NCBI GenBank assembly: GCA_964590205.1
Contig: CAZPVO010000002.1
Location: 1,005-65,004 of the forward strand
Direction of reading: 5' to 3'
Length of the DNA: 64,000 nucleotides
Source of the DNA: an uncultured Candidatus Saccharibacteria bacterium
GTDB taxonomy: Bacteria > Patescibacteriota > Saccharimonadia > Saccharimonadales > JAGQNJ01
Shown here: one piece after another, positions 9,222 to 37,242 of the stretch
Position numbering within the stretch: position 1 is the first letter of the stretch
How the letters are laid out: each line of letters opens with the position of its first letter
Made by a program: the position numbers and the translations under genes
Notes under the pieces: generated by a model
Seen by the model: only the letters and a program-made list of their open reading frames with translations
Told to the model about the DNA's origin: nothing
Databases searched by the model: none

Positions 9222-10973
9222 TTGAGACATTGTAGTGGAGGAGACGTGGCGGAGCATCTAAATGTACCACATGGAGGGAAACTTGTAGATCTGATGGCCA
9301 GTGGATCATCAGCCGCCAAGTTAAAAAAGCAGGCTGTTAATTTCAAAAGTTGGGATTTAACTCCAAGGCAGTTATGCGATGTTGAAATGTTGGTGTCTGG
9401 CGCCTTTTCGCCCCTCACTGGCTTTATGAATAAAAAGGAGTACGAGAGCGTCTGCAAAGACATGCGCTTATCCGACGGCACTCTATGGCCCATGCCAATC
9501 ACGCTCGATGTTGATGATAAGTTTGCCAAGGACTTAAAAAAAGGTGTTCGTGTCGCGCTCCGAGATCAAGAAGGAGTCATCCTGGCCGTGCTAGAAGTTG
9601 GTGATGTGTGGAAGCCAAACAAAAGTAAAGAAGCGAAGTCAGTGTTCGGTACAAATGATCAAAATCACCCAACCGTGCAATACTTGCACCACAAATCACA
9701 CGACACATATGTAGGCGGCAAAATAACTGGGCTAGAGCTACCTCGTTACTACGACTTCAGTGAACTGAGATATACGCCAGTCGAGCTTCGCGAACATTTC
9801 AAGAAGCTGGGCTGGACCAAGGTAGTGGCCTTTCAAACCCGAAACCCTATGCACCGAGCACACGTTGAATTAGCACTTCGGGCAGCAAAGCAAACGCAAG
9901 CAAACCTACTCATACATCCGGTTGTGGGTATGACAAAACCGGGAGACGTTGATCATTACACACGTGTGCGAGTCTACCAGGCAGTCCTAAAGAAGTTCCC
10001 CAAGTCCACGGCTATGATCTCGCTTTTGCCGCTCGCCATGCGCATGGGTGGCCCGCGAGAAGCACTCTGGCATATGATTATCCGCAAAAATTATGGAGTA
10101 ACTCATTTTATTATTGGCCGTGATCATGCCGGACCGGGTAAAAACTCAAAAGGTAATGATTTTTATGAACCATATGATGCACAGCAACTGGCAGCCAAGT
10201 ATGCCAAGGAAATAGGTGTAAAGGTAATTCCCTTCCAAATGATGGTGTTCGTACCAGAACATGACGTGTACATGCCAATTGATGAAGTTCCTGATGGAGC
10301 GGAATATCTGAGTATTTCGGGAACTGAACTCAGGGCAAGACTCGCTGATGGTCGGCCATTGCCAAAGTGGTTCACCTACCCCGAGGTGGAAGTAGAGCTT
10401 CGCAAAACCTATAAACCGCGACCCAAACAAGGCTTGGCAATATTTTTCACCGGCCTTTCTGGTGCTGGAAAATCGACAATTGCCAATGCCTTGATGGTAA
10501 AACTTATGGAACAAGGAAAGCGAACTGTGACGCTGCTTGATGGTGATCATGCCCGCAAGCATCTGTCCTCAGAACTCGGGTTTAGTAAAGAGCACCGAGA
10601 TCTTAACGTAGCACGAATTGGCTTCGTAGCGAGTGAAATCTCAAAGCATGGCGGAATCGCACTCTGCACCCCTATCGCACCCTACGATAAAATTCGCAAA
10701 AAGGTTCGTACCATGGTTCGAGAAAGTGGCGGAAACTTTGTGCTGGTATATGTCGCGACACCGCTCGAAGAATGTGAAAAAAGAGATCGCAAAGGTCTCT
10801 ATGCAGCAGCACGAACTGGTAAGCTCAAAGCATTTACCGGAGTTTCCGACCCTTACGAGACTCCGGCCGACGCCGAGCTAGTGCTTAATACTGTTGGCTT
10901 TAGTCCTGACGAACTGGCAAACCGCATCTTGCTGTATCTCGAAAAAGAAGGTTTCTTGGAGACTACAACATAA
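9222..10973 (+). CDS. bifunctional sulfate adenylyltransferase / adenylylsulfate kinase (PAPS synthesis)
   Basis: ATP-sulfurylase motifs FQTRNPMHRAH and IIGRDHAGPG. C-terminal APS-kinase motifs FFTGLSGAGKST and LLDGDHAR. The exact start is uncertain (ATG 9222 or nearby GTG). Confidence 0.9.
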   Translation: MRHCSGGDVAEHLNVPHGGKLVDLMASGSSAAKLKKQAVNFKSWDLTPRQLCDVEMLVSGAFSPLTGFMNKKEYESVCKDMRLSDGTLWPMPITLDVDDKFAKDLKKGVRVALRDQEGVILAVLEVGDVWKPNKSKEAKSVFGTNDQNHPTVQYLHHKSHDTYVGGKITGLELPRYYDFSELRYTPVELREHFKKLGWTKVVAFQTRNPMHRAHVELALRAAKQTQANLLIHPVVGMTKPGDVDHYTRVRVYQAVLKKFPKSTAMISLLPLAMRMGGPREALWHMIIRKNYGVTHFIIGRDHAGPGKNSKGNDFYEPYDAQQLAAKYAKEIGVKVIPFQMMVFVPEHDVYMPIDEVPDGAEYLSISGTELRARLADGRPLPKWFTYPEVEVELRKTYKPRPKQGLAIFFTGLSGAGKSTIANALMVKLMEQGKRTVTLLDGDHARKHLSSELGFSKEHRDLNVARIGFVASEISKHGGIALCTPIAPYDKIRKKVRTMVRESGGNFVLVYVATPLEECEKRDRKGLYAAARTGKLKAFTGVSDPYETPADAELVLNTVGFSPDELANRILLYLEKEGFLETTT

Positions 10974-11042
10974 GGTACAATAAAACATAAGCATACGAGG
11001 AACAGTTGTTGTAATGAAAGAACTTCCCAGCGAGAAACAAAT
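10974..11042 (+). promoter_or_regulatory. conserved cassette leader 1 with 10-codon uORF (MKELPSEKQI)
   Basis: GGTACAATAAAACATAAGC block. The uORF 11014-11046 has its TGA overlapping the main ATG (ATATGA). Homologous to the leaders at 13224 and 15398. Confidence 0.5.
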
Positions 11043-12344
11043 ATGAGCAGGCTTCCAACTCCTGGTAGTGACAGCGGTAATTGGGGCGATATACTTAATG
11101 ACTTTTTGAGTCAGTCTATTAGTAGTGATGGAACACTAAAATCTAGTGCGGTATCTACAGCTGGTACTAATAGCTTTGTAAGTAAAACTGGCGATACTAT
11201 GTCGGGCGGGTTGATGGTAGCTATAAAAGCAGCGGCCGGTGGGACAGAGACAGCTACGCTAGGTACTGGCTCTGCATTTGGTGCAGGATACATCAGTGCA
11301 ACCTCTGGTCGCACAGCACTTCTTAAGTCGTCTGGCCCTGGATCATGGGCAGGCGGATACGTCTCTGGGGCGAGTGGAGTCGACGCTACACTCAGGTCTG
11401 ACACTAGCCAAGCTGCTTTCTCATTTGGCTCAATCAAAAAAGGTGGTGCTATCGAATCGTTGAATGAAGGTACCTGGGCTGGAGGCTATGCTTACTCGGG
11501 CGGTGCGGTTCGAGCCATTGCACAAGGTTCACAGGCTTTTGGCTATACCTACGGATCAACCACACTAATCAGATCTAATGCTCAGGGTGGTCATGCTTCT
11601 GGTGGTGCTTGGACATCAGGATCAATCAAAGCAAGTGGGTACGGATCTATTTCTCATGGCTACTCTAAGGGTGCCAGTTCAACGGTTTATGCTTCAGGAT
11701 CAGGTGCACAAGCATGGGGTTATGCATATGCAAGTGGCTCTGTATTGGCTCAATCACAAGGGACTCAAGCCACTGGCTTTGCAAGTGGTTCAAACGCTCG
11801 AGTATCTGCAGTTGGCAGAGGAGGCTTTGCTGGTGGATATGCACGATCGTCTGGGCAAGTAAGAACTACGAATAACGGTTCCTTTTCGCATGGCTATGCT
11901 AAAAATTTAAGTGCAGTAATTGAAGCAACCGGCTGGGGCTCGTTCGCACAGGGCTACACTCTCTCTGCAGGTGTCATCACATCAAGTGGTTATGGCAGCA
12001 TGGCGAGAGGAAGCTCGATTGGTGCAAGTAGTGCCATTACAGCTAGCAATGCTGGATCCTTTGCCAGTGGCTATTCAAAAAACAGCGGTACCATTGTTGC
12101 TTCAGCCAAGGGCGCCTTTGCTCACGGCTATGCCTCATCCGGCACTACCGTTACTGCTTCAGCAGCAAACTCGTTCCAATTCGGTAAAGGTACTAACTCT
12201 ACCGCCGATTCACTTCGTGTCGGTGTAGGAATTCGATTGTTCGGCACAGTTGCAACACCGGGCTCACCGGCAAATGGCGATGTTTGGCTTGACCCAGATG
12301 GGCATGTTAAAATACGTTCAAATGGCTCAACTATCTCACTGTAA
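11043..12344 (+). CDS. tail-fibre-like repeat protein, shared N-terminal module (paralogue 1)
   Basis: N-terminus MSRLPTPGSDSGNWGDILNDFL is shared with ORFs 13291 and 15468. The body is a long run of ~19-20-aa G/S/A-rich repeats (..GS.A.GY...S......AS..). No signal peptide. Confidence 0.65.
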   Translation: MSRLPTPGSDSGNWGDILNDFLSQSISSDGTLKSSAVSTAGTNSFVSKTGDTMSGGLMVAIKAAAGGTETATLGTGSAFGAGYISATSGRTALLKSSGPGSWAGGYVSGASGVDATLRSDTSQAAFSFGSIKKGGAIESLNEGTWAGGYAYSGGAVRAIAQGSQAFGYTYGSTTLIRSNAQGGHASGGAWTSGSIKASGYGSISHGYSKGASSTVYASGSGAQAWGYAYASGSVLAQSQGTQATGFASGSNARVSAVGRGGFAGGYARSSGQVRTTNNGSFSHGYAKNLSAVIEATGWGSFAQGYTLSAGVITSSGYGSMARGSSIGASSAITASNAGSFASGYSKNSGTIVASAKGAFAHGYASSGTTVTASAANSFQFGKGTNSTADSLRVGVGIRLFGTVATPGSPANGDVWLDPDGHVKIRSNGSTISL

Positions 12345-12362
12345 TTGTGAGGGTGGGATCTT

Positions 12363-13166
12363 ATGAAGGGTATTCACATGCTCTGTGGTTTGCCGCGAGC
12401 AGGCTCAACGTTGCTTGCAAATGTACTCGAGCAGCATCCTGATCTGTGGGTATCGGGCACTTCATCTCTATCACCATGCGTCCAATCAGTTTCTCAATGT
12501 TTATCCAATAATGAAGAAGTAAAATCAGAACTTTCTGTTGATCCACAATATTATGAGCGTTACAGAACTGGTATGTGCAGTTTCGCGGAGGGCTGGTACA
12601 AAGACGTTAACTCAACAGTCATCGATAAGGGGCGCCTTTGGACCTCAATGCGACCGCTGGTAGATGAGCTTTGGCCAAAAGCAAAATTTATTGTGTGCGT
12701 CAGAGATCCCCGTGATGTGATTGCCTCTGTTGAGAGCCGACATCGTGATACGGCACTGTTTATGCAAGATGGTGACCAAACGCTTTATGAATCTGCAGAA
12801 AACTTTATGAAAAAGGACGCTATGGTTGGTGGTCCAATGTGGCATATTGAGGATCTTATTCGCAGGCAAATGACCAAAAACATTGTTTTTGTAAGATATG
12901 AGTCGTTTGTTGTTAATCCACAACTGACTATGGACGAACTTTCTGACACGCTCAAACTCAAGTCATTCAAATGGAATTTCAAGAACGTTAAAAATCGTCA
13001 GCGTGATGCTGATGCGATTTGGAAGCAAAAATTTCCACATACCGGTGATGGATCGGTCAAAGCAAAAATTGGCTCTTGGCGTGATGTAATGGATAAGGAA
13101 CTTGCCGATAAGATCGTAAACGTCTATCCCCTGTACGCAACAACCTTTGGGTACAAAGAAGACTGA
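12363..13166 (+). CDS. PAPS-dependent sulfotransferase
   Basis: 5'-PSB-like GLPRAGSTLL near the N-terminus and 3'-PB-like VRDPRDVIASV. Begins 19 nt after the fibre gene. Confidence 0.75.
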   Translation: MKGIHMLCGLPRAGSTLLANVLEQHPDLWVSGTSSLSPCVQSVSQCLSNNEEVKSELSVDPQYYERYRTGMCSFAEGWYKDVNSTVIDKGRLWTSMRPLVDELWPKAKFIVCVRDPRDVIASVESRHRDTALFMQDGDQTLYESAENFMKKDAMVGGPMWHIEDLIRRQMTKNIVFVRYESFVVNPQLTMDELSDTLKLKSFKWNFKNVKNRQRDADAIWKQKFPHTGDGSVKAKIGSWRDVMDKELADKIVNVYPLYATTFGYKED

Positions 13167-13223
13167 TCTTGAACTTAGAGAACCGTATCTGTTCATAATT
13201 GCTGGTGTGTCCTTCCTCTAGTT

Positions 13224-13290
13224 GGTACAATAAACCATAAGCTCGTGAGGGCAAATTTTGGTATGAAGAAAAAAACTTTGAGGATAATAA
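13224..13290 (+). promoter_or_regulatory. conserved cassette leader 2 with 11-codon uORF (MKKKTLRIINE)
   Basis: GGTACAATAAACCATAAGCTCGTGAGGGCA block. The uORF 13263-13298 ends 2 codons into the main ORF. SD GAGGA lies inside the uORF. Confidence 0.5.
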
Positions 13291-13941
13291 ATGAGTAGGC
13301 TACCAACACCGGGTGGTGATGCCGGTAACTGGGGTGATATTCTTAATGACTTTTTAGATCAGTCGCATAATAGTGATGGGACATTAAAAGACAGTGCTGT
13401 TTCAAGTTCCGCATTGCTGAAAAGCAATAATTTGAGTGATGTGAGTTCAACGAGCTCTGCACGCACAAATCTAGGCTTAGGTGATTCGGCCACCAAAAAT
13501 GTTGGCTCAATTGCCGGTACGGTTGCTGCCGGTAATGACAGCCGCTTAAGCGATACTCGTGTGCCGACTGATGGGTCTGTAACGCCTACTAAGTTGGACC
13601 GTGGCTACACTGAATCAAAAAACGGTGGTAAAGAGGGCATCCAAGCCCACGGCAGTACAGGATCGGCTGTCACCATTAATCTTGCCAACGGCAATGTCCA
13701 CACAGCCACCCAAAACCAATCCTGCACATACACCTTTACTGGCGCCACCAGCAGTACATCCTGTTCGTTTCTATTAATACTTGGTGGCGTAACCGGCATC
13801 CCAACCTGGCCGGTAAACGTAAAGTGGGCCAATGGCAGCATCCCAACAATATCAGGAGAATGCATTCTAACTTTTGTAACAGTTGATGGCGGAACTAATT
13901 GGTATGGGTCATTGGTAGGCAATGACTTTGCAACAGCTTAG
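13291..13941 (+). CDS. tail-fibre-like protein, shared N-terminal module (paralogue 2)
   Basis: N-terminus MSRLPTPGGDAGNWGDILNDFLDQSHNSDGTLK. The C-terminus (...ILTFVTVDGGTNWYGSLVG) resembles phage fibre or receptor-binding tips. No signal peptide. Confidence 0.65.
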   Translation: MSRLPTPGGDAGNWGDILNDFLDQSHNSDGTLKDSAVSSSALLKSNNLSDVSSTSSARTNLGLGDSATKNVGSIAGTVAAGNDSRLSDTRVPTDGSVTPTKLDRGYTESKNGGKEGIQAHGSTGSAVTINLANGNVHTATQNQSCTYTFTGATSSTSCSFLLILGGVTGIPTWPVNVKWANGSIPTISGECILTFVTVDGGTNWYGSLVGNDFATA

Positions 13942-13947
13942 TAAACA

Positions 13948-15348
13948 ATGAGAACAACTGCGCTAAAACTAATAACTTCATCGCTTCTGGCCTCGCAACG
14001 ATTTGAGAACAACGTTTTGCGGCTTAATCCAACACTTTATTTACCGATGCAAGAATCTGCGGGCGAAACAACTTATCAAGACCTGACTTACAACGGTCAC
14101 GATGCGATCGAAAAACAAGCCGGCCACCAAACAAATGGCCAAACTGGTGGCTATGGCCGGTTGGCTGTTAAGTTCGACGGCACGTCACTCTCTGGGCTAA
14201 CAATACCTGAAACGCCAGAGATTGCGATGACAGCCAGCGGGTCCGAAAAAGTCTCAGTTATGTGTTTGTTTAAGGCCAACGGCAATGGTGGTTACTTAGT
14301 AACTCAAGATAATGGTGGTAATCGGCCGTGGGTAACAAGTGTGCAGGACAAACTATACGGCTACGCCAACAACCAATCTGGACCAGGACTTTATACCGAC
14401 AATGATTATCGAAGTGACGGCAAGTTTCACCTATTTATTGCCACTATGGACGATGGCACGAATGAGTGTAAACATTACGTCGATGGATTGGCCACGACAG
14501 TACTGGGAGGAACTCTTGGCCCTTTTCAAGCAACTAATGGCTCAACGCCAATTCAGATTGGTACCAATGTGGTCAACGATTTTCGATTCGATGGCTGGAT
14601 AAGTGACGTCGCTGTTTGGTATGGCGGTATTCTCACCGAAGACAATGTAGCCGAACTGTATAAAAATCTTATATACGGCAGTGGTTCTGCGTATGCCTAC
14701 CGCACAGCCGTGCTGACCGACGCGCCCTCATACTTATGGGTTGGTGATGATGCCTCCGGTGATTTTCAGGAATACAATAACGGGCCGGCCCTCACCCACC
14801 AAACCGGCACCATTAGATATCGCTTTGATGCGATTACAGCTGGCGAGCTTGTAGCTCAAGGTAGTGGATCAGCAGGCGCGCCTTCGCACTTTTCAACCAC
14901 CAATTCAGGCCCGCCGTCGGCAATCAGTGGTTCAGAATGGACCATGGAATGCTTGTTTAGGCAGCCAGGTGGCAACGACTCCGGCAGATTAGCATTTTAT
15001 ATTGGCGATTCTAGTTCGAATGGTGCTGGTATTTATGTTAATGGGCCAAGTGCCAACTTGCCCGTCCTGGGTTTATTGGGCGGTGTGGCTTTTGTTGGCA
15101 GTTCAACAAACATCAGTAAGGGTCCGGCACATCACCTTGTTTTGCGTCGCAAAGCTGGAGTAGTTTCACTTTGGGTTGACGGAGTTTCCGTAGCCACAAG
15201 CAGTTCAACACCAAACGCTCCTAGTAACGTTACAGAAATTTATCCTCATAGCGACAATGCAAACACCTATGGAACAATCGCCTTTACGGCAGTTTATAAC
15301 TCAGCTCTCTCAGACGCCCGAATAGCCATCCACGCCGCGGCAATGTAA
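13948..15348 (+). CDS. double LamG / concanavalin-A-like lectin domain protein
   Basis: Two LamG-type terminal motifs (FDGWISDVAVWYGGILTEDNVAELY; IAFTAVYNSALSDARI). Starts 7 nt after paralogue 2. Confidence 0.6.
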   Translation: MRTTALKLITSSLLASQRFENNVLRLNPTLYLPMQESAGETTYQDLTYNGHDAIEKQAGHQTNGQTGGYGRLAVKFDGTSLSGLTIPETPEIAMTASGSEKVSVMCLFKANGNGGYLVTQDNGGNRPWVTSVQDKLYGYANNQSGPGLYTDNDYRSDGKFHLFIATMDDGTNECKHYVDGLATTVLGGTLGPFQATNGSTPIQIGTNVVNDFRFDGWISDVAVWYGGILTEDNVAELYKNLIYGSGSAYAYRTAVLTDAPSYLWVGDDASGDFQEYNNGPALTHQTGTIRYRFDAITAGELVAQGSGSAGAPSHFSTTNSGPPSAISGSEWTMECLFRQPGGNDSGRLAFYIGDSSSNGAGIYVNGPSANLPVLGLLGGVAFVGSSTNISKGPAHHLVLRRKAGVVSLWVDGVSVATSSSTPNAPSNVTEIYPHSDNANTYGTIAFTAVYNSALSDARIAIHAAAM

Positions 15349-15397
15349 CGACCGGGGAATCAACACTTATCCTAGCTCTCACTAATGTTCTCTGTTA

Positions 15398-15467
15398 GAC
15401 TAGTAACCATAAGCTCTTGAGGGCATGTTTTGCTATGAAAGAAAAAATACTTAGGATACAAAACTAG
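15398..15467 (+). promoter_or_regulatory. conserved cassette leader 3 with 10-codon uORF (MKEKILRIQN)
   Basis: TAGTAACCATAAGCTCTTGAGGGCA block. The uORF 15435-15467 has its TAG directly abutting the main ATG. Confidence 0.5.
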
Positions 15468-16820
15468 ATGAGTAGATTACCAACTCCAGGAAGTGATGCC
15501 GGTAACTGGGGTGATATTCTTAATGACTTTTTAGATCAGTCGCATAACTCTGATGGAAGTCTAAAAAGTTCAGCCGTAACAGCTGCAGGCGGTGATTCAA
15601 GCACTAAAGTTAGCAAGTCTGGCGACACCATGACAGGCGGCTTACATGTTGATGATGGGGGTGGAGCAACATCAGATCTTGAAGCTGGTGCACTATACGT
15701 TAGTACGAATGATGGTCTACATCAGGCTTCTCTTAATTCGTCATACCTTTCAATTTCCGATACCACCACCGGTAATAATGTCGGGGGCTTTTTTGGGCAG
15801 GACGGCAAAGCTCTACTCTTTGGCGCAAGTACAAGCGACTATGCCTATGTTTCGGCACTGTCGACGGATTTTCAAGTTCGCTGGCAAGTCTTGCACGACG
15901 GATCAATCAGTTGGGGTGATGGATCGGCTTCCCCCGATACGGTCATATCTCGGACGGCTGCAAACACACTGTCAATGGGAGCCGGTGACAAGCTCCAACA
16001 AAATGCAGCGCCGACTACCGGTGATGACCTGACCAATAAAACCTATGTCGATAGCACGGCTGGTTCTCCGTCAGCCGCGGTCATTCTGGCTCCTGGATCT
16101 TCCACTAGAAATATTATCCAGCCTAGCGGCAACTTTAAGCCGCTCATTGTTCGTGGTCATTCAACCCAAGCCACTTCCCTACTTGAACTTCAAAACAGTA
16201 CCCCCACAGCCCTCTTTACAGTTGCCTCTGATGGTGCAGTTACTATGGCCAGCTCAGTCACTCACAGTTTGGGTGCAAGCACCGTTGTCAATCACTCAGG
16301 AGGTTTATATCAAGGACGGCAAGTTAAAGTTGACGGGTATTTTTCTAATACTTCAGGTAATCCACCGGGTGTCGGATTAATACGCTTAAATAACGCTGAG
16401 GTTATTGCTTGGCGCAATGCCGGCAATTCTGCTGATTACACACTTACGGTTGATAGTACTGATCAACTCGTGACAACAACAGGTGTGACGGCAAGTGGAC
16501 AAGTAACTGATCATCAGAACATTAATGCACAGACCGGCACAACGTATACGCTTGTTATTGGTGACGACGGCAAAATAATTACACTGAGTAATGCCTCGGC
16601 GATTACACTGACGGTGCCAACTAATGCTTCGGTGGCCTTTCCGATAGGTACGCGTATTGATCTGATTCAAAAAGGAGCTGGACAAGTAACTGTTGCTGCT
16701 GCAGGTGGAGTAACGATTAATGCGACACCGGGGCTTAAAGCACGTGCCCAATATTCTGCCGCCACACTTATTAAAGAGGCTACGAACACTTGGTACTTGG
16801 TTGGAGACCTGAGTGCATGA
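15468..16820 (+). CDS. tail-fibre-like protein, shared N-terminal module (paralogue 3)
   Basis: N-terminus MSRLPTPGSDAGNWGDILNDFLDQSHNSDGSLK. C-terminus ...FPIGTRIDLIQKGAGQVTV...NTWYLVGDLSA is phage minor-tail-like. No signal peptide. Confidence 0.65.
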   Translation: MSRLPTPGSDAGNWGDILNDFLDQSHNSDGSLKSSAVTAAGGDSSTKVSKSGDTMTGGLHVDDGGGATSDLEAGALYVSTNDGLHQASLNSSYLSISDTTTGNNVGGFFGQDGKALLFGASTSDYAYVSALSTDFQVRWQVLHDGSISWGDGSASPDTVISRTAANTLSMGAGDKLQQNAAPTTGDDLTNKTYVDSTAGSPSAAVILAPGSSTRNIIQPSGNFKPLIVRGHSTQATSLLELQNSTPTALFTVASDGAVTMASSVTHSLGASTVVNHSGGLYQGRQVKVDGYFSNTSGNPPGVGLIRLNNAEVIAWRNAGNSADYTLTVDSTDQLVTTTGVTASGQVTDHQNINAQTGTTYTLVIGDDGKIITLSNASAITLTVPTNASVAFPIGTRIDLIQKGAGQVTVAAAGGVTINATPGLKARAQYSAATLIKEATNTWYLVGDLSA

Positions 16821-18550
16821 GTGCCTATCCACTAGGGGTAGTTGCATCTGAATTAAATCGGCACACCAATGCCCCACTCGGTCCGTGGGCCGAAGGTGGC
16901 GACGTAGTGTTCATCGACGGCTGGGAAATCCACACCTTCACTGGTAACGGCACGCTCACCGTGCTACGAGACACGAATGCTGACTATCTCGTGGTCGGTG
17001 GTGGTGGCGGAGGCAGCGTCGGTGGTGGTGGAGCCGGTGGTCTACTCACAGGTACCGACACAGTATTGGTTGGCGACCTGCCGGTCACGGTCGGAGCAGG
17101 AGGTGCAGGCGAAACGTCGTCTGCCGACAACGCTGGAACTGGCAGCAACTCGGTCTGGAACGGTCACACTGCTCTTGGGGGTGGTGCAGGAGGTTTTATC
17201 GGTAATGGCCATCCCGGAGGCTCGGGTGGCGGTGGTGGTGGCATAGGCGGAGGTGGTGGCGGAGCTGGCACTGTCGGCCAAGGCAATAATGGTGGTGGCC
17301 CTGGCGGAGGCACATGTGGAGCGGGTGGTGGTGGTTCTGGCGCAGTTGGACAGCAGGCTAATCCATCGGGTGGAGACGGGCATGGCGGTGACGGTGGCGC
17401 AGGGACGTCATCGTCAATCTCTGGTTCATCTGTCGATTATGCCGGAGGCGGGGGTGGTGGTGGCACCGCTTCCCAAGGTAATGGCGCTGCAGGGGGCGGC
17501 AACGGGGCCAATTTCGGACCAGGTGCACCGGCCGCAGCAAATACCGGTAGTGGTGGTGGTGGTATCTATTCGGCATCACCTGGTGGTGCTGGAGGAAGTG
17601 GCGTCGTAATCCTGAGGGCACTCGGTTCACCTCGCCCTGACCCACCGTCTGCGCTGGTACTCACTCCCGGAGCAACGTCGATAGACGTCGCATGGACTAA
17701 CTCTCCATCTGGCAATGTCGACCACTATGAGTACCGAGTCAGTCATGACGGCGGTTCGACATGGTCGCCTGACTGGACGACAACTCCGTCTGGCTCGCCG
17801 TTCACAATAAGTGGCCTGACAGCAGGCACCGAGTACACGGTTGCTCTGCGCGCAGTCGACACTGATGCCATTGCATCAACGGTGATCAGCGACACAGCAT
17901 CGACGCCGAGTACCTACGATGCACTCATGGCAGGGCTGATCTCCAATCCACTTGATGTTTATTACCCTATGACCGAGACAAGCGGAACCACTATTCAAGA
18001 TTCGTCGGGTAATGGACTTAATCTAACCGCCTCGGCAACAATTGTTGGAGATGGTACATCAATCCAGTTCGATGGAAATTATGACGCTTCGCGAGCATTG
18101 GCATTTACCTCAGCTTTCCATGCACCCAAAACCGAGATCGTGTGGCTCAAAACCTCAACAGTTGTTGATACGCTTGCGATGCTCATGTGGCGTACCCCTG
18201 GTGGTGGCGATGCAGGCGGTTTATTTCTTAACTTCGTCGGTGATGACGGCAACGCCGAACTGTATCTGAACAGTGGAGCTCGCGGTGCTTGGGGTGGCAA
18301 TGCACTAAATAATAACCAGTGGCATATGCTCGCTTTTGTTCATGATGTTGGATTTGACTACTCAGTCTATCTCGATGGTGTTGCCGTGCGAGCAGGTGGC
18401 GGTGACGGTATTGGTTCGAGCAATGCCACCACCTTGTTTGTCGCTAGCAACGACGGCATCCAAAAGTTCATCGGTAGCCTTCGCCGAGTGTCTGTACTAC
18501 ACACACTACTCAGTGACTCGGACATCGCCGCGTTGTGGGCTGCTGGGTAA
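16817..18550 (+). CDS. glycine-rich domain / fibronectin-III / LamG protein
   Basis: ATGA overlap with paralogue 3. DYLVVGGGGGGS... poly-Gly domain ending GGSGVVILR, an FN3 segment (...YEYRVSHDGGSTWS...TEYTVALRAVD), and a LamG-type end (FIGSLRRVSVLHTLLSDSDIAALW). Confidence 0.65.
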   Translation: MSAYPLGVVASELNRHTNAPLGPWAEGGDVVFIDGWEIHTFTGNGTLTVLRDTNADYLVVGGGGGGSVGGGGAGGLLTGTDTVLVGDLPVTVGAGGAGETSSADNAGTGSNSVWNGHTALGGGAGGFIGNGHPGGSGGGGGGIGGGGGGAGTVGQGNNGGGPGGGTCGAGGGGSGAVGQQANPSGGDGHGGDGGAGTSSSISGSSVDYAGGGGGGGTASQGNGAAGGGNGANFGPGAPAAANTGSGGGGIYSASPGGAGGSGVVILRALGSPRPDPPSALVLTPGATSIDVAWTNSPSGNVDHYEYRVSHDGGSTWSPDWTTTPSGSPFTISGLTAGTEYTVALRAVDTDAIASTVISDTASTPSTYDALMAGLISNPLDVYYPMTETSGTTIQDSSGNGLNLTASATIVGDGTSIQFDGNYDASRALAFTSAFHAPKTEIVWLKTSTVVDTLAMLMWRTPGGGDAGGLFLNFVGDDGNAELYLNSGARGAWGGNALNNNQWHMLAFVHDVGFDYSVYLDGVAVRAGGGDGIGSSNATTLFVASNDGIQKFIGSLRRVSVLHTLLSDSDIAALWAAG

Positions 18551-26237: not shown

Positions 26238-26314
26238 GGCGGCGTAGCTCAGCCGGTTAGAGCGCAGGACTCATAAGCCTGAGGTCACAGGTTCGATCCC
26301 TGTCGCCGCTACCA
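26238..26314 (+). tRNA. tRNA with CAT anticodon (elongator Met or lysidine-dependent Ile2)
   Basis: GGCGGCGTAGCTCAGCCGGTTAGAGCGCAGGACTCATAAGCCTGAGGTCACAGGTTCGATCCCTGTCGCCGCTACCA. Cloverleaf elements, T-loop GGTTCGATCC, encoded CCA. Confidence 0.9.
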
Positions 26315-26593
26315 CTTCCGAACAAATTGAATCCTCTCAATTTACGGGGAATACATCCGACAAATAAAAAGACCCACGCATGATGGGTCTTTTATAATTT
26401 TTAGAGATTGATTAATCTTCGCTGAGGATTTGATCTATTTCTAAAATTCTTTTATCTGTAGTTGGTAACAGTTCGTATGCTAATTCCATTTTTTGGTGCC
26501 CTTTTTATTGTTTTATTGTTTTTATTTGTTGCAACAATACCCATTATTATACACGTATTTGCTTTTTTGTCAACTATTATGTAATAAAAAGTT

Positions 26594-28613: not shown

Positions 28614-28688
28614 AGCGGGGTGGAGCAGCGGCAGCTCGCGTGGCTCATAACCACGAGGTCGCAGGTTCGAGTCCTGCCCCCGCAACCA
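28614..28688 (+). tRNA. initiator-type tRNA-Met (CAT)
   Basis: AGCGGGGTGGAGCAGCGGCAGCTCGCGTGGCTCATAACCACGAGGTCGCAGGTTCGAGTCCTGCCCCCGCAACCA. Closely resembles E. coli tRNA-fMet (GCGGGGTGGAGCAGC...CCCCGCAACCA) and has an unpaired 1:72 position. Confidence 0.85.
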
Positions 28689-30237
28689 AGTAAGAATTTA
28701 AAGCCCTTTCGGGGGCTTTTTGTATTGAAATACATCTGTAAAGCTCGCTTATTTCTGAGGTTCCAAACTTATGGCTTGATGAGTCATACACTACACCCCT
28801 TGGGAACAACATGCTTTGGAACCTAATTTGCAAGTCAACCTCTGAAGAAGCCCATTGCTTGTCTACATTCTCCATAACGTTTATAGCTTGCTCAATGTCG
28901 GTTTCACGAATCATTTGCTGTTGTTCTAGCTTTGTTAAGTCAGATGTCACTTCAAGCTTTTGATTATCTAGGTCGGCTATATACGCGTCTTTCTCGTCTT
29001 TTGTAAGTTCTTCAGCAACGAACTTATCAATTGCCTTACTTCGCAGTTCGGATATTTTGTTTAGCTTTTCTCTGCTCAGGCCTATCCTTACATTAAGACT
29101 ATCTAGTGCAGCATTAGACTCTTTAACAAGTACGTGCTTATAAACCTTCAAGATTTCGCTAGAGGGTTTAATTTTTTCGAGCATCTTTTCAAACTCGTTG
29201 TGTACTATGTCCGCCTTCACCGACGGAACTTTACCAACACATGACTTTCGAGCACAGTGATACCTTGGAGATGACTGTCCATTACCCGTGGTTGGTGCAG
29301 ATGAGTATAGTGATTTATTACAATTACGGCATAGCAACAAACCACGTAAAGGATACCTGCTGTTTATGTGGTCATGTCTTTCACCTTTTCGAGAGTTTTC
29401 ACCATAAAGCAGGTTATGATTTCGTTTAAAGACTTCCTCACTAATAATGGCAGGGTGCTTACCTTGGACATTTTTGTAGTTTGTAAACTTATCCGATACA
29501 TAACCTGCATACGTCGGGTTCTTTATTAGCCTATGTATACTGTCTTCGCCTAAGAATTTATCATATCGGCTCTTAAGCCCAACTTGCTTTGCATAACGTG
29601 TGAGCTCAGCCTTTGAAATATCACCAACACTAAATCTTTCCAATACACTCTTTACTTTATCAGCCATAGGTGTCTTTCTAAGTGTTGGTCTTAGCTTGCC
29701 TAAATCATTAGGAATTTTATTAGGCAAATAGCCAACAATAGGTGGGTGCTGATAGAACCCCTGCATTGCTAATGAACGCATGTTATCAATTGTCACTTCA
29801 GCTTTTCCTTCATTATCAAGTTGGCCAAGAGCAACAAGCAGATTTTCCATAAACCTCCCCTCTTTTGTGTCGTTAACAGCTGGTTCTGTTGCTGACCGAA
29901 TCGTTATCCCGCTTGCCCTCAACACGAGTTTGACGTTGGTGGTGTATGAATCGTTATCACGAGAGGCTCGCTTCATGTTGTAAACAACCCAGTGGTTTAT
30001 TTCAGACTTGTGTTTAATGCAGTAGTTCAGCAGTGCTTGTAATCCATCACGCTCTGTATTCTTGCCAGACTTAGCAATATCTTCAAACCATTTAACTATG
30101 TGTATATTGTTTAGGTCAGCAAATCTCTGAATACTGTCACGTTGCGTAATAGGACTTTCGTTATTTACCTGCCTTTGTGACGATATCCTTATGTAAGCGA
30201 CTGCTTTTTTCTTGGACTCATTCATACTTGTTTCCAT
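28645..30237 (-). CDS. large serine recombinase (integrase)
   Basis: Resolvase catalytic N-terminus AVAYIRISSQRQ, a recombinase domain, a zinc ribbon CRNC...RYHCARKSC, and a coiled-coil. The last ~15 codons are antisense to the tRNA. Confidence 0.9.
   Translation of the reverse strand: METSMNESKKKAVAYIRISSQRQVNNESPITQRDSIQRFADLNNIHIVKWFEDIAKSGKNTERDGLQALLNYCIKHKSEINHWVVYNMKRASRDNDSYTTNVKLVLRASGITIRSATEPAVNDTKEGRFMENLLVALGQLDNEGKAEVTIDNMRSLAMQGFYQHPPIVGYLPNKIPNDLGKLRPTLRKTPMADKVKSVLERFSVGDISKAELTRYAKQVGLKSRYDKFLGEDSIHRLIKNPTYAGYVSDKFTNYKNVQGKHPAIISEEVFKRNHNLLYGENSRKGERHDHINSRYPLRGLLLCRNCNKSLYSSAPTTGNGQSSPRYHCARKSCVGKVPSVKADIVHNEFEKMLEKIKPSSEILKVYKHVLVKESNAALDSLNVRIGLSREKLNKISELRSKAIDKFVAEELTKDEKDAYIADLDNQKLEVTSDLTKLEQQQMIRETDIEQAINVMENVDKQWASSEVDLQIRFQSMLFPRGVVYDSSSHKFGTSEISELYRCISIQKAPERALNSYLVAGAGLEPATSWL
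28699..28722 (+). terminator. intrinsic terminator after tRNA-fMet
   Basis: AAAGCCC-tttc-GGGGCTTT followed by TTG. Confidence 0.6.
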
Positions 30238-30262
30238 AATACACCATGTAATTTATTGGAAC

Positions 30263-30418
30263 CTATAATTTGAGTGATTTTCTAGCTATTAGGGTTAGTA
30301 CATTAACTAGTTCTTGCACTTGGTGGTCGGTTAAGTAACTATACTTGCGTCCTAGCAGTTTTTTAGCCTCTATGACGGTAGTTTTGGGAGGTTCATGCAA
30401 GTCATTGCTATTGAGCAT
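30263..30418 (-). CDS. possible small protein (51 aa), not in ORF track
   Basis: Own translation MLNSNDLHEPPKTTVIEAKKLLGRKYSYLTDHQVQELVNVLTLIARKSLKL. The ATG overlaps the upstream gene stop by 11 nt. It fills the gap before the recombinase. Confidence 0.3.
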   Translation of the reverse strand: MLNSNDLHEPPKTTVIEAKKLLGRKYSYLTDHQVQELVNVLTLIARKSLKL

Positions 30419-30713
30419 CAGAAGCCCTCACAGGGCTGCTAAATGTACGAGCCTCTTTCACATACTTGCTGAATAATTTTCCTGGGAAGTCTCCTTCTGA
30501 GGCACGCCTACGCCATTCGTTGACCTGTGCATAGCCAAAGTCTTTTACTACACCGCAATACCATTTTCGAAACTGCACATTGTTATATTCAGCAACCAAT
30601 TCGTCAGCAAGCTTATCAATGGCTTCAATTGGTAACTGTTTAATTGAAGTGTCCGATGAACTGTCTATTGGCAGTTGTTTGTTACTTAAAATATTTGAAA
30701 TGCCAGTACTCAC
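30408..30713 (-). CDS. hypothetical protein (101 aa), element-borne
   Basis: ORF only. No family recognised. Confidence 0.5.
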   Translation of the reverse strand: MSTGISNILSNKQLPIDSSSDTSIKQLPIEAIDKLADELVAEYNNVQFRKWYCGVVKDFGYAQVNEWRRRASEGDFPGKLFSKYVKEARTFSSPVRASDAQ

Positions 30714-30766
30714 ATCCCAATTGTATGTACGACTTCAGAATGTAGCTGCCCCAACAAACAAAATTA

Positions 30767-31159
30767 TTATCTGGTCTTTAAATATTTCTTATTTCTGTTG
30801 TAGTATTTTTGTAAGTCAAATTCAGTTAAGAAGGGATATTCGCCATCAAAGTATGGTATCTCGTCGTTCGCATATGCTTCATGTATGTTTTTAAATGTTA
30901 GTTTACGTTTCCTTAAGAAATACACGCCATATAGTAAAACAAGGTCTTTCGGTGGCTTCACTCTTTTATAGTGCTTTTTCCCTGTTACTTTTGCACGTGC
31001 ATCACTAAACGTATCCCATGCCTGAAGAAACTCTTCCTTCGTAGCATCAATCCCAAATGAAATAATAAATTTCTGCTTCTCAACGTCGTAGTCCATTCCT
31101 ATATTTTTATTTGGAATGTTCTTTTTCATTTTGAACCAGAGCTTTAACCGAAGCTCCAC
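30767..31159 (-). CDS. hypothetical protein (up to 130 aa), element-borne
   Basis: ORF only. The start is uncertain (internal Met at MKKNIPNK). Confidence 0.45.
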   Translation of the reverse strand: MELRLKLWFKMKKNIPNKNIGMDYDVEKQKFIISFGIDATKEEFLQAWDTFSDARAKVTGKKHYKRVKPPKDLVLLYGVYFLRKRKLTFKNIHEAYANDEIPYFDGEYPFLTEFDLQKYYNRNKKYLKTR

Positions 31160-31484
31160 CTAGTATGGGTTTTACCTCTTGTAATGTATGTTCAAAATCA
31201 TGTTTTAGACTAAATTCGTCTTTCTTTTTTCTTTCTAGATACTTTAATGCCAAGTCAGGACTTTTCTCAAACGATTTAATAACAGAAGCTCTGGCTTTAA
31301 GAATTGGCATTTCTTTTAACTGTGTTTTTCGCTCCAGAAACTTTGGGTTCTTCTCTTGAAATTTATAGAGTGTTGCGGGGGCTATATTAGCATATAAGGT
31401 GGCTTCTAAGTCTGTACAGCCTAATGCAAACGCCTCTTCAAGCTTGCTTCTCACTTCGCTTGTCATTATTGTTGGTCTACCCAT
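31107..31484 (-). CDS. HTH protein, terminase-small-subunit-like / DNA-binding
   Basis: The ATG at 31484 is preceded by AGGAGGG. MGRPTIMTSEVRSKLEEAFALGCTDLEATLYANIAPATLYKF resembles N-terminal HTH domains of phage small terminase or transposase-associated proteins. Confidence 0.45.
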   Translation of the reverse strand: MGRPTIMTSEVRSKLEEAFALGCTDLEATLYANIAPATLYKFQEKNPKFLERKTQLKEMPILKARASVIKSFEKSPDLALKYLERKKKDEFSLKHDFEHTLQEVKPILGGASVKALVQNEKEHSK

Positions 31485-31500
31485 ATTTTTAACCCTCCTA

Positions 31501-32118
31501 TTAATGCAATGTCGTAGCGATGTCAACACACTCATTAATTGCTTGAGTATTGCTAACACCAACATATGAGGTGCATTGGTTTCTAGCATTATTACTGTCT
31601 GGTATATAAAAATATACGTAAAAGTATTCAGTTATAGGCTGGGCGTAGGTCTCTTTTGTAGAGTGCCCATCGCTGTACGTACAATTTTTACTCCAGCCGT
31701 TTACACCTTGAATATGTCCAGCACCGTTTCTATATAAAGAATGTGTCTCATACTGCACATCATTGTTGTTGGTACAACTTATAAGTGTTGGGCTAGAGAT
31801 AGTTTCCTGAGTTGGAGCTGACGGATTATTGCTACTAACTGAAGGTTTAATGCTACTACTTGTTGAAGACGATTGACTATTATTATCAGATTTTGTTGTT
31901 TGTGTTGTAGGATTGGTTGTAGTTGTCTTTTCTTTAGCATTAGGTTGTTCATTTGACGTTTGATTTTGGTTGCTTTGATTATTTAATGAATCATGGGATT
32001 TTAAGGCATAGATACCTACTGGCAGGGATATTAGCAATCCGAAAAATAGACCAATTAATAGCTTGGTGTTATTTTTAGTAACTTTTTTTATACCGCTAAG
32101 ATATTTCTTCACACCCAC
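31501..32118 (-). CDS. membrane-anchored/secreted protein with S/T/N-rich linker
   Basis: N-terminal TM helix (LLIGLFFGLLISLPVGIYAL), then a low-complexity QTSN/ST-rich stretch, then a Cys-containing globular end. Confidence 0.55.
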   Translation of the reverse strand: MGVKKYLSGIKKVTKNNTKLLIGLFFGLLISLPVGIYALKSHDSLNNQSNQNQTSNEQPNAKEKTTTTNPTTQTTKSDNNSQSSSTSSSIKPSVSSNNPSAPTQETISSPTLISCTNNNDVQYETHSLYRNGAGHIQGVNGWSKNCTYSDGHSTKETYAQPITEYFYVYFYIPDSNNARNQCTSYVGVSNTQAINECVDIATTLH

Positions 32119-32327
32119 ATTATATACTTAAAAAATCAAGTACTGTTAGCATGGTTAGATACTGTATACGCCGGCGTATATGTATATACGGCAAATAATG
32201 AAGATATCCAATTAAGGAGTCTCTTTATGTTTTCGGTCAATATTGGTGATACAATCGAAATAGCAATGTGAGTATGAGTTGTATAACATCCATCGCCCAC
32301 ATGCTTATTAACAAGGTGGCAAACTCA

Positions 32328-32993
32328 CTAAGCAGCTACGGGCTTAAGCAACGATTTATCATTGTTCCTAGGGCTGTTTACGTCCCTGCTAACCTCATAG
32401 ATTTCTAGACCATTGTCTTCGAACGGAAACAGTAGTGACTCTAAGTTCTCAGGTTTGTCGTTTGATGGCTCAATCCAAGAAGCTTCGGCTTCAGGATGTA
32501 ATATCACTGGCATTCTATTGTGAATTGCCTTCATCTCTTTATTCGGTTCTGTGGTCATAATCGAATACGTTTTAATTTCATGACCATCTTTGCTTTTCCA
32601 ATTATCCCAGATCCCAGCAAAGGAATATAATTCGATCTTTTTAGGGTGAATGTAGAAGGGTATTTTGCCGTCTTTAGAAGCCCGCCACTCGTAGAAACCT
32701 GTGGCTGGCACTAAACATCGGTGATTTAGCACAGTACGCTTCCAGAAACCCCCAAAGGCCTTGTCAGCTCGAGTGTTAATAAGCTCTTTAACTAAGTCTT
32801 TTCCCAGCATACGCGGTATACCCCATTGCATGGTTTCAATACGCCGCTTTCCGGTTTCGTCTTCAATAATTACAGGCATTTCCTGTGAAGGCGACACATT
32901 GTAGTTTTCCCGAATGTCTTTCGGTTTGTTATCCACTTTAAAACGCTTCACAAGCTTTCCGGTTTTCACATCGAGTGTATAACGACCGCACAT
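32328..32993 (-). CDS. SOS-response-associated peptidase (SRAP / YedK-HMCES family)
   Basis: True start MCGRYTL (catalytic Cys2) at 32993. Family-typical ...FYEW... and ...MPVIL... motifs. Confidence 0.85.
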   Translation of the reverse strand: MCGRYTLDVKTGKLVKRFKVDNKPKDIRENYNVSPSQEMPVIIEDETGKRRIETMQWGIPRMLGKDLVKELINTRADKAFGGFWKRTVLNHRCLVPATGFYEWRASKDGKIPFYIHPKKIELYSFAGIWDNWKSKDGHEIKTYSIMTTEPNKEMKAIHNRMPVILHPEAEASWIEPSNDKPENLESLLFPFEDNGLEIYEVSRDVNSPRNNDKSLLKPVAA

Positions 32994-33019
32994 ACTACTA
33001 ATTGTACTAGGAGATTGTA

Positions 33020-33286
33020 ATGAGAGAAAAAGTAAATCAAGAAGTAAGCGTTGTGATGTACTATTCAGCCAAGAAAAAGCAGGCAGTGCCACACATGCTG
33101 TATTGGCAGAATAAGGACTATATGCTCGGCAAAGTTGATTATTACCACAACTACATGGAGGGACGGGAGAAACAACATATTTTCGAGTTGTGCGACAAAG
33201 ACACTTCGCTGTGGTTCAGGCTGAGGCTAGATAGCAGTAATTTACACTGGACGCTGGAGGCTATTAGCGATGGACTTGCAACTTAA
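33020..33286 (+). CDS. hypothetical protein (88 aa) preceding the Y-family polymerase
   Basis: ORF overlapping or abutting the polymerase start. Its position is analogous to UmuD/YolD-type accessory genes, but no motif was recognised. Confidence 0.45.
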   Translation: MREKVNQEVSVVMYYSAKKKQAVPHMLYWQNKDYMLGKVDYYHNYMEGREKQHIFELCDKDTSLWFRLRLDSSNLHWTLEAISDGLAT

Positions 33287-34932: not shown

Positions 34933-35050
34933 GTTCTAGTCCCCTGCGGTAGAGTAACTTAACTGTAGTTTTCCCCTAGAGAGCTGTAACCATCTTACTA
35001 GCTCCCAACTGATTTGGTTCCAATTCGAGTGTACGTGGGCAACCATAAGC
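34933..35050 (+). repeat. tRNA-fMet-like 118-nt repeat, copy 1
   Basis: Aligns end to end with copies at 36426 and 37243. Ends in GGTTCCAATTCGAGTGTACGTGGGCAACCATAAGC. Confidence 0.8.
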
Positions 35051-35055
35051 ATGTT

Positions 35056-36416: not shown

Positions 36417-36425
36417 ACTTCAGAA

Positions 36426-36543: not shown

Positions 36544-36549
36544 ATTTTG

Positions 36550-37233: not shown

Positions 37234-37242
37234 AGACCACAG

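Follow-up and report, generated by a model that had tools for sequence, protein, structure and literature searches.

Why does a Saccharibacterial chromosome carry genes whose products are built like the tail fibres of bacteriophages, and what might such proteins do for an epibiont? The question is raised by a stretch of 64,000 nt (the window) of Candidatus Saccharibacteria contig CAZPVO010000002.1 (assembly GCA_964590205.1, positions 1,005 to 65,004 of the forward strand). Positions 11043 to 18550 of the window hold three co-directional pairs, each consisting of a fibre gene and a partner gene. The fibre proteins are paralogues, here called A, B (open reading frame (ORF) 13291), and C (ORF 15468), and the section 13291 to 16820, for which a preliminary description was at hand, comprises B, the partner of B, and C. 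Both ORFs and the C-terminal sequences quoted in that description are present; they encode proteins of 216 amino acids (aa; 13291 to 13941) and 450 aa (15468 to 16820). Cultivated Saccharibacteria grow on Actinobacteria, and the way in which they identify their hosts is described as largely unknown (PMC10633639; 10.1101/2024.11.25.624915).

Phage-type tips of paralogues B and C

The preliminary description had likened the C-terminal tips of both proteins to the ends of actinophage minor tail proteins. Searches against the PHROG profiles returned significant matches to tail fibre or minor tail proteins for both distal domains. Both tips were also modelled by AlphaFold2 (AF2) with a predicted local distance difference test (pLDDT) score above 90, and the models matched fibre or spike domains of virions. 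The tip of ORF 15468 (aa ~350–450) matched phrog_8780, annotated as minor tail protein (E 9.7e-22), and phrog_21510 (E 7e-26). In a tblastn comparison with 50,697 records of cultured phages, it was found in 226 records, 211 of which are Gordonia phages, with 45–55% identity over ~100–120 aa. No Mycobacterium phage was among these 226 records. In Gordonia phage Jambalaya, the match covers the C-terminal ~98 residues of gp35, a minor tail protein of 754 aa, whose gene stands at the end of the tail module and is followed after 3 nt by a gene for another minor tail protein. The minor tail protein gp36 of Gordonia phage EMoore aligned with a longer part of C, aa 189–448 (32% identity, E 2e-9).

The predicted structures gave the same picture. 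The C tip reached a pLDDT of 96–98, whereas the shafts, modelled as monomers, were of low confidence. Foldseek retrieved 169 viral models from BFVD at E ≤ 1e-3, among them Gordonia phage minor tail proteins and fibres from phages that infect Alpha- and Betaproteobacteria, and the best alignments confined to the tip (~100 columns) had a root-mean-square deviation (rmsd) of ~0.6–1 Å. Among solved structures, the C tip matched the KP1 baseplate protein (9f4b_FA) and the XD domains of the tailspike TSP4 (7rej, E 6.5e-4). The best PDB matches of the B and C tips were all phage virion proteins, including the Pa223 capsid spike (9ny6_C), with modest scores; a sequence search of the PDB with ORF 15468 gave no match. 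By sequence and predicted fold, the C tip is confirmed as a minor-tail tip of the actinobacteriophage type. C resembles the Gordonia phage proteins (Jambalaya gp35, EMoore gp36, PHROG 8780) over its last ~100 aa, and over up to 260 aa in the case of EMoore. These phage proteins, however, carry other N-termini, and their genes belong to a tail module with tape-measure and lysis genes nearby, whereas C is encoded alone on a chromosome and starts with the 37-residue Saccharibacterial N-module described below.

The C tip occurs on more than 1,865 proteins, behind many different N-termini. Its nearest relatives (74–78% identity) have N-termini other than the N-module, and several of them share a 369- to 376-aa architecture starting with MADTKIS, the tips of which are 66–78% identical to that of C. 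One protein of this architecture (P0009), with a tip 68% identical to that of C, is encoded in the tail region of a 43.7-kb phage contig of 62.5% guanine plus cytosine (GC), which also carries a capsid gene, a tape-measure-sized gene (1,618 aa), and, two genes ahead of the fibre gene, one for a LamG protein. The major capsid protein of this contig matched 34 cultured-phage records, 29 of them capsids of Streptomyces phages (~40% identity). The other N-module proteins with a C-type tip form a separate group, 72–97% identical among themselves. Thus, the C-type tip was probably joined to the N-module more than once.

For ORF 13291, the likeness to phages stood but the likeness to actinophages did not. 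Its tip (aa ~117–213) matched phrog_9017, annotated as tail fiber (E 1.9e-11), had a pLDDT of 90–97 over aa 121–210, and found its best solved-structure matches in phage virion proteins (9ny6_C, 24qj, and 7rej_A). The whole protein matched 142 phage records. The matches to the tip came from Roseobacter, Klebsiella, Salmonella, and Cronobacter phages and from a Halorubrum virus (32–45% identity), that is, mostly from phages of Gram-negative hosts, and we therefore regard the B tip as phage-like but not actinophage-like. Homologues of B such as P0122, P0130, and P0134 (37–53% identical) carry the domain PF26209, Phage_phiTE_241_C, in the same place; no hit is recorded for ORF 13291 itself (P0121), this model being absent from the Pfam set that was scanned. 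PF26209 was also seen on tail fibres of Cronobacter GAP31-like and Salmonella phages, and those phage fibres also match B. Unlike in the phages, the domain is joined here to the Saccharibacterial N-module, and the same holds for the B-tip domain in 69 of its best 120 matches. The similarity of B to actinophages resides instead in aa 57–102, a repeat of the type NLGLG...GNDSRL that is 63–72% identical to Gordonia phage proteins. This is a widespread fibre repeat, 52–69% identical to tail fibres of Escherichia phage PHB10 and Yersinia phage phiR1-37 and also present in the short tail fibre gp92 (PDB 9zd7) and the tail collar fibre gp4 (PDB 9d93). Mycobacterium phages account for 67 of the 142 records of B; none of them was among the matches listed, so that the part of B they match was not located. 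The body of A consists of Gly/Ser/Ala/Tyr-rich repeats (repeat family D2) and matched neither Pfam nor PHROG nor cultured phages.

A constant N-terminal module and its family

A, B, and C share a 37-aa start, MSRLPTPG(S/G)D(A/S)GNWGDILNDFL..., in which 30 residues are invariant. Between the paralogues, these 37 codons differ at a proportion of synonymous sites (pS) of 0.64–0.92 and of nonsynonymous sites (pN) of 0.05–0.11, with pN/pS ratios of 0.07–0.18. With pS near saturation and pN low, the paralogues are best described as old duplicates under purifying selection, and recent gene conversion does not account for the likeness of their modules. No Pfam or NCBIfam model matched the module. A 45-position profile built on it retrieved 5,889 representative proteins (clusters at 50% identity) at E ≤ 1e-3 and 2,848 at E ≤ 1e-10, and the match starts at residue 1–4 in nearly all of the best 150. 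The consensus M-x-R-L-P-x-P-G-x-D-x-G-x-W-G-x-x-L-N-D-[FY]-L...D-G-[TS]-L-K stands at residue 1, and all three paralogues conform to it. Scanning GTDB with one genome per species yielded 38 loci, most of them with Saccharibacteria, Saccharimonadia, or Patescibacteria in their titles; seven belong to a single metagenome-assembled genome (MAG), MGCS01. These loci contain ~50 genes with the module at residue 1, followed by mutually unrelated bodies of 135–1,364 aa. One member of the family, P0130, is identical on at least 24 contigs. We conclude that the N-module marks a very large family, hitherto undescribed, whose members come mainly from Saccharimonadia and are present in several copies per genome.

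What follows the module was surveyed in 110 members. Pfam assigned DUF5907 repeats to 29 of them, BppL_N to 17, GDSL/SGNH esterases to 9, pectate-lyase-like spikes to 7, collagen to 5, and PTR to 4; single cases were T4 Gp10_C, Phage_tail_C, GDPD, polysaccharide deacetylase, CBM6, CBM5/12, and a marginal DUF4185 (E 5e-4). All annotated PHROGs in this set are minor tail, tail fibre, tail spike, or virion structural proteins. Both surveys indicate that the family is built of parts of phage receptor-binding proteins. Several of the enzyme types act on cell-envelope polymers. DUF4185 proteins (GH183) are endo-D-arabinanases of the mycobacterial cell wall that also occur in actinophage lysis cassettes and in the Saccharibacterium Mycosynbacter amalyticus (PMC10115798). 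The general plan, a constant N-terminal attachment part with exchangeable distal parts, is that of modular receptor-binding proteins in phages of Gram-positive hosts, of the lactococcal BppL type with its shoulder, neck, and swappable head. A and C carry a similar-looking K-x-GDTM(T/S)GGL motif after the module, without a match to BppL_N. In contrast to the BppL type, no baseplate genes are present here, and a 37-aa module lacking a Pfam model precedes the GDTM motif.

Two observations were made in passing on single loci of the family. The cultured actinobacterium Microbacterium sp. MYb62 (NZ_PCOY01000038.1, locus L035) has an apparently frameshifted N-module gene at 10001–11376 that runs into an SGNH-hydrolase-like region, with a DNA methyltransferase-like gene ~6.6 kb away; it could be a mobile element or the remnant of a prophage in a potential host lineage. 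Stand-alone tip proteins, starting with MGSPGVGG... or MSFSPAGGNISGADDV..., were seen at L003 (10247–11497) and L004 (7268–7696) and as P0187. At L003 and L004, the stand-alone tip gene directly follows an N-module fibre gene, which suggests two-chain fibres.

The preliminary description had further compared the shared N-terminus with the N-termini of phage or hyaluronidase-like tail proteins. The comparison with phages was justified. Among cultured phages, the module was found in six Streptomyces phage records only, which represent four to five distinct BRock-group phages; in BRock itself, it heads a protein annotated as collagen triple helix repeat-containing. The exact Saccharibacterial form, searched with strict DNA patterns, had no match in 2.9 million IMG/VR contigs. 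A looser, profile-derived pattern detected 25 IMG/VR contigs (42–70% GC) with a divergent module, M(S/A)RLPTVG.D.NTWG.VLNDFL.VAHNADG.(I/L)K, at the head of tail-spike-like proteins. In one siphophage-like contig (L064), which has major head and major tail genes, the gene for the divergent-module protein directly follows the tape-measure gene, and its product matches tail-spike PHROGs. This position is consistent with attachment at the tail tip. When viral sequences were scanned with the first 100 aa of ORF 15468, most of the matches listed lay downstream of the module, around GDTMTG. Apart from the fibres, the proteins encoded on the viral contigs had no homologue in the cellular loci compared, and a docking partner was not found in this way. 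The hyaluronidase-like N-terminus, by which we take Mtd_N to have been meant, did not reappear: since no Pfam model matched, the module is not of the Mtd_N type. As adaptor, shaft, and tip all have phage matches, the whole architecture appears to come from phages.

Chromosomal setting and partner genes

The cluster is flanked by genes for HrcA, GrpE, a DnaK-sized protein, and an adk-like protein on its upstream side and by LepA, MurJ, FtsH, and TilS on the other. The encoded core proteins are 75–81% identical to those of Ca. Saccharibacteria and Nanosynbacter MAGs (L021, L025, L007, and L033). These housekeeping flanks and identities mark the window as Saccharibacterial chromosome, as the preliminary description had supposed when it spoke of a Saccharibacteria-like organism. 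Related genomes have N-module fibre genes in comparable places: ~550 bp after the adk-like gene in L021, adjoining the LepA–MurJ–FtsH–TilS block in L033 and L054, and adjoining MurJ–FtsH–TilS (without LepA) in L007. The GC content at third codon positions (GC3) is 0.34–0.47 in the fibre genes and 0.33–0.46 in the flanks, which argues that the fibre genes are long resident. The overall GC content of the phage contig with the nearest C tips is 62.5%, and that of Jambalaya 67%.

These data bear on the possibility that the fibre genes are merely decaying leftovers of a prophage, without present function. Every domain is indeed phage-like, and the island has a GC content of 0.49 against 0.43–0.45 in the flanks. 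All ORFs are intact, however, the module evolves at the low pN/pS given above, thousands of family members are intact and begin at residue 1, conservation extends to leaders and translational coupling, GC3 is the same as in the flanks, and relatives hold such genes at comparable positions. Small genomes of the Candidate Phyla Radiation (CPR), moreover, keep little junk. We therefore consider functionless leftovers extremely improbable. That the organism may have domesticated phage receptor-binding modules, as the preliminary description had proposed, agrees with the phage-type tips, shafts, and adaptor, the chromosomal setting, the GC3 values, and purifying selection; the term domesticated phage receptor-binding proteins is well supported for the fibres of the cluster.

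No integrase, attachment repeats, packaging genes, or virion genes were found within 9222–18550, and the fibre genes have housekeeping neighbours, without adjacent tape-measure, baseplate, capsid, or lysis genes. We also took a census of 150 genes located within three positions of fibre genes at 34 loci (the 38 loci minus four binned outside Patescibacteria). It yielded 142 Pfam families, headed by ABC transporters, methyltransferases, TatC, AAA proteases, and GH57. The 25 most frequent did not include any phage structural family, be it for capsid, portal, tail tube, or tape measure. The statement of the preliminary description that the window has no other phage structural genes holds for virion proteins in the part of the ~80 ORFs that was scanned, and it needs to be qualified for an island ~10 kb from the fibre cluster. 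There, a large serine recombinase gene (28645–30237, minus strand) overlaps a tRNA-Met gene (28614–28688), and beyond it lie a small-terminase-like gene (31107–31589; phrog_4102, E 2e-16), a phrog_1599 gene (32328–33092, E 2e-58), and a helix-turn-helix repressor-like gene (35091–35630). The GC content falls to 0.37 at 30–32 kb. The region 28614–33092, perhaps up to ~35.6 kb, looks like a small integrated satellite or prophage remnant. LepA, MurJ, FtsH, and TilS stand between this island (28.6–33 kb) and the fibre cluster.

The coordinates of the cluster are collected in Table 1. The gene for the sulfate adenylyltransferase (SAT)/adenosine 5′-phosphosulfate (APS) kinase, which makes 3′-phosphoadenosine 5′-phosphosulfate (PAPS), is the first gene of the variable island; it is an associated gene and not a fibre gene.

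Table 1. Fibre genes, partner genes, and their parts in the cluster (positions of the window; aa, amino acids)
Feature	Position	Strand	Description	Basis
SAT/APS kinase	9222–10973	+	Bifunctional, makes PAPS	NCBIfam NF004040, E 2.2e-275
Paralogue A	11043–12344	+	433 aa; N-module aa 1–37, KTGDTMSGGL motif, C-terminal end ...GDVWLDPDGHVKIRSNG	
Sulfotransferase, partner of A	12363–13166	+	18 nt after A	Sulfotransfer_1, E 2.6e-17; phrog_27463, E 8.5e-28
Leader of B	13233–13290	+	Repeat family D4; contains TGGTATGAA and AGGAT	
Paralogue B (ORF 13291)	13291–13941	+	216 aa; N-module, repeat, and tip	ORF
N-module of B	13291–13401	+	aa 1–37, MSRLPTPGGDAGNWGDILNDFLDQSHNSDGTLKDSAV; helix at aa 13–25	AF2
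Tail-fibre repeat of B	13459–13596	+	aa 57–102, ARTNLGLG...GNDSRLSDTRVPTDGSV	Phage protein matches
C-terminal tip of B	13639–13929	+	aa 117–213, beta-sandwich	phrog_9017; AF2
Partner of B	13948–15348	+	466 aa; two LamG/concanavalin-like domains; 6 nt downstream of B	Laminin_G_3 (PF13385), E 9e-17, two stretches; phrog_3545, E 7.5e-8
Leader of C	15405–15467	+	Second copy of B leader	Repeat comparison
N-module of C	15468–15578	+	aa 1–37	Paralogue alignment
Paralogue C (ORF 15468)	15468–16820	+	450 aa; N-module, KSGDTMTGGL motif, shaft, and tip	
C-terminal tip of C	16515–16817	+	aa 350–450, NAQTGTTYTL...TNTWYLVGDLSA	phrog_8780; Gordonia phage matches
Partner of C	16817–18550	+	577 aa; Gly_rich_2 and fibronectin III; ATG at 16817 overlaps the stop codon of C (ATGA)	PF21722, E 2.7e-16; fn3, E 4.2e-8; phrog_2295, E 1e-38

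The leaders of B and C are 80% identical over 59 nt (13233–13291 and 15405–15463), and their identity exceeds that of the synonymous sites in the module coding sequence downstream. A partly similar stretch, TTG.TAATGAAAGAA, stands upstream of A. The leader could be a promoter or an element of the 5′ untranslated region; TGGTATGAA is a candidate extended –10 element and AGGAT a putative ribosome-binding site. No Rfam family matched the leader, and scans for promoters and terminators were at chance level.

Partner genes are a recurrent feature of the family. About 20 of 55 fibre genes, including A, B, and C, are followed by a co-directional gene at a distance of –4 to +20 nt. The partners identified were LamG proteins (the window, L053, and L057), a DUF4082/PKD protein (L054), two sulfatases (L014), GH16 (L016), and the sulfotransferase of the window, and further partners gave weak GH42-like and LamG-like matches. 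The C-terminal region of the partner of C looks LamG-like by eye, without a profile match. Judged by these domains, the identifiable partners are glycan-binding or glycan-modifying proteins. They also belong to the phage toolkit, since the phage protein A0A6J5QL15 in BFVD combines a glycine-rich domain and a C-type tip in one chain and a LamG gene lies near the tip-bearing fibre gene of the phage contig described above. A tblastn search of cultured phages with A and the Gly-rich partner returned a match to the N-module or none at all, possibly because of low-complexity filtering.

The coupling of fibre and partner raises the possibility that the C-terminal tips are docking platforms and that the partner encoded downstream forms the true ligand-binding end, branched as in the CBA120 and G7C tailspikes. 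Besides the ~20 coupled genes, this explanation can draw on the structural matches to the XD domains of TSP4 and to the KP1 baseplate protein, on the second minor tail protein gene 3 nt behind gp35 of Jambalaya, and on the existence of stand-alone tip proteins and tandem tips. The beta-sandwich of CBA120 TSP4 (7rej) is among the best matches of both tips, and our fibre genes, too, are coupled to a second protein. The XD domains of TSP4 are N-terminal, however, and are said to hold other spikes, whereas the tip domain is C-terminal here, and the structural similarity is weak (template modelling scores of 0.2–0.3, rmsd ~4 Å). Furthermore, many tip-bearing fibres have no coupled partner, and phages carry the tip at the very end of a distal minor tail protein, where receptors are usually bound. 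We regard docking platforms as possible, if on the doubtful side; they would be a variant of the host-recognition role discussed below and compatible with it.

In two loci, partners point to sulfate groups. The window contains a complete gene for PAPS synthesis and a sulfotransferase gene within the fibre cluster of an epibiont with a reduced genome, and in the Patescibacteria MAG of L014 two fibre genes are each followed by a sulfatase gene (9997–11472 and 13322–14755). Sulfated glycans or proteins may be a recurring target. Homologues of the SAT/APS kinase and the sulfotransferase were not found in the 38 related loci, of which L021 lies on a short contig. The linkage of sulfation and desulfation enzymes to the fibres, together with the lack of an export signal, would also fit an action inside the cell, either as scaffolds for the metabolism of sulfated glycans or, in defence, as decoys for phage parts. 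PADLOC defence families were matched at noise level only (E ≥ 4e-4). To our knowledge, collagen, beta-helix-spike, and carbohydrate-binding fibre architectures are extracellular wherever their function is known, and we know of no precedent for an intracellular or defensive role. This explanation thus appears highly unlikely. Readings as a polymorphic toxin or a defence system were likewise unsupported.

Direct repeats of at least 45 nt in the window were confined to the N-module, the leader, the tRNAs, and one intergenic family. A diversity-generating retroelement (DGR) was considered and found no support: the window contains no pair of template and variable repeats, and the scanned part of its ORFs did not include a reverse transcriptase. 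The DGR-diversified Mtd-like or C-type-lectin proteins of CPR bacteria are comparable in that they, too, are of the phage receptor-binding type, kept by episymbionts, and presumed to serve attachment. The tips described here are not C-type lectin folds, however, and vary through paralogues and module exchange rather than mutagenic retrohoming. The intergenic family is a 135-nt direct repeat in three copies with 68–84% identity (34930–35064, 36423–36557, and 37240–37374), each copy preceding, at a short distance, one of three plus-strand genes in a row. An Rfam scan of the window returned three tRNA-Met genes and nothing else; they lie within 17 kb (26238–26314, 28614–28688, and 42635–42710), and a 28-nt repeat (93% identical) is located at 26322–26349 and 42795–42822, close behind the first and the third of them at distances of a few to ~85 nt.

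Export and possible roles of the fibres

Phage fibres kept by cells are known from R-type pyocins and from the gene transfer agent (GTA) of Rhodobacter capsulatus (RcGTA). Like the N-module fibres, theirs are encoded on the chromosome, lack signal sequences, and combine a constant N-terminal with a variable distal part. The fibres of our cluster might accordingly be alternative receptor-binding proteins of a phage, satellite, tailocin, or GTA-like particle that is released by lysis, with the N-module docked on a tail tip encoded elsewhere. The strongest argument for such a particle is that none of the six proteins of the cluster has a secretion signal, as is expected of virion proteins assembled in the cytoplasm and odd for adhesins. 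Real phages also use the module next to the tape-measure gene, all genes of the cluster except A match PHROG families, and the serine recombinase and the small-terminase-like gene beside tRNA-Met indicate that phage-related elements visit the genome. Reportedly, the fibre and spike genes of RcGTA lie apart from its main cluster. Against a particle speaks that no virion family was detected among the 25 commonest in the neighbour census or among the window genes scanned, and that several dispersed copies, each with its own leader, occur per ~1-Mb genome. In contrast to the pyocin and RcGTA fibres, no particle genes were found near members of the family, and a single genome holds far more copies, of far greater diversity. 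The exact Saccharibacterial module was absent from the IMG/VR contigs, a text search of the annotation tables of Southlakia found neither 'capsid' nor a phage terminase, and a tip shared with actinophages would be odd on a particle that targets Saccharibacteria. On balance, we hold a particle to be unlikely, though far from negligible.

We favour the explanation that the chromosomal N-module fibres and their partners serve host-cell recognition in Saccharibacteria, and give it about an even chance. The fibres would be trimeric, like phage fibres, and the constant N-module would attach them to a single structure conserved in Saccharibacteria. Their variable distal end and the co-translated partner would bind and locally modify cell-wall glycans of the actinobacterial host, and the repertoire of fibres would set or widen the host range, as swaps of tail fibres do in phages. 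That the C tip is common to Gordonia phages and to a phage contig with a Streptomyces-phage-like capsid would be explained most simply if the same type of receptor were bound. Such a role is plausible from the sequences, and it fits the biology of an epibiont and the glycan-directed partners.

Several points weigh against host recognition. Surface display would require a route for proteins without a signal, since a hydropathy scan of the six cluster proteins revealed neither a signal peptide nor a lipobox nor a transmembrane segment. Their maximum hydropathy over 19 residues is at most 1.47, compared with 2.45–3.13 for MurJ and a putative peptidoglycan-binding protein. The partner enzymes of relatives, inspected by eye, start without an obvious signal sequence as well. 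The proteins do not look like Sec-exported or wall-anchored adhesins: a hydrophobic segment is lacking, and the conserved start stands at residue 1 in ~50 homologues. No docking structure for the N-module was identified. The fold of the tips also resembles the XD domains of CBA120 TSP4, which reportedly dock other tailspikes, so that the tips may hold a partner instead of a receptor. The tip of ORF 13291, moreover, resembles those of phages with Gram-negative hosts. An actinobacterial host is assumed here for the source organism. Finally, the annotation tables of a transposon-sequencing study of Southlakia contain no tail-fibre terms, and hence that study offers no genetic evidence.

Known export and surface systems were looked for near N-module genes. 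TatC genes lie within 10 kb of them at four loci (L011, L014, L025, and L027), and some partners start with ...ARRLQR; with no hydrophobic region after the arginines and a weak adjacency, Tat export was rejected. Genes for PilB, PilC, PilM, or PilN occur within 10 kb at L013, L011, L038, and L054, and pilin genes at L017, L018, and L020, the one at L018 standing between two fibre genes. A link to type IV pili is a weak lead.

A more specific form of host recognition would provide a route to the surface. In M. amalyticus growing on Gordonia amarae, cryo-electron tomography revealed a lance, a tube ~9 nm wide and 70 nm long (PMC11880426). It reaches from the inner membrane to the outside and ends in a barbed tip density; its composition is unknown, and it is a possible conduit into the host (PMC11880426). 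The N-module fibres might be the distal 'barb' of such a phage-tail-tip-like organelle, an idea that we rate as quite improbable at present. Fibres made in the cytoplasm would dock with their 37-aa module on the tip of the tube and be carried out with it, which would account for fibres and partner enzymes without secretion signals. Exchangeable tips, which phages of Actinobacteria have as well, would then select the host cell, whose wall would be opened by the partner enzymes. If this were true, the tips could serve to predict hosts of uncultured Saccharibacteria from the hosts of phages with the same tip.

The N-module family may bear on the question of how episymbionts among the CPR/Patescibacteria select and keep their hosts. 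The only candidates for host attachment named so far are type IV pili and a few lectin-like proteins (PMC10633639; 10.1101/2024.11.25.624915). In the library searched, we found no literature linking Saccharibacteria or Patescibacteria with tail-fibre-like proteins. Phage fibres kept by cells were known before; new is that they form a large family behind a constant adaptor. Even if the fibres belonged to an unseen phage-derived particle, this would be new for the phylum. If they act in host recognition, they would provide concrete genes to knock out or swap in genetically tractable strains, might allow hosts of uncultured lineages to be inferred from shared phage tips, and would be an example of a cell, not a virus, that uses a modular tail-fibre system.

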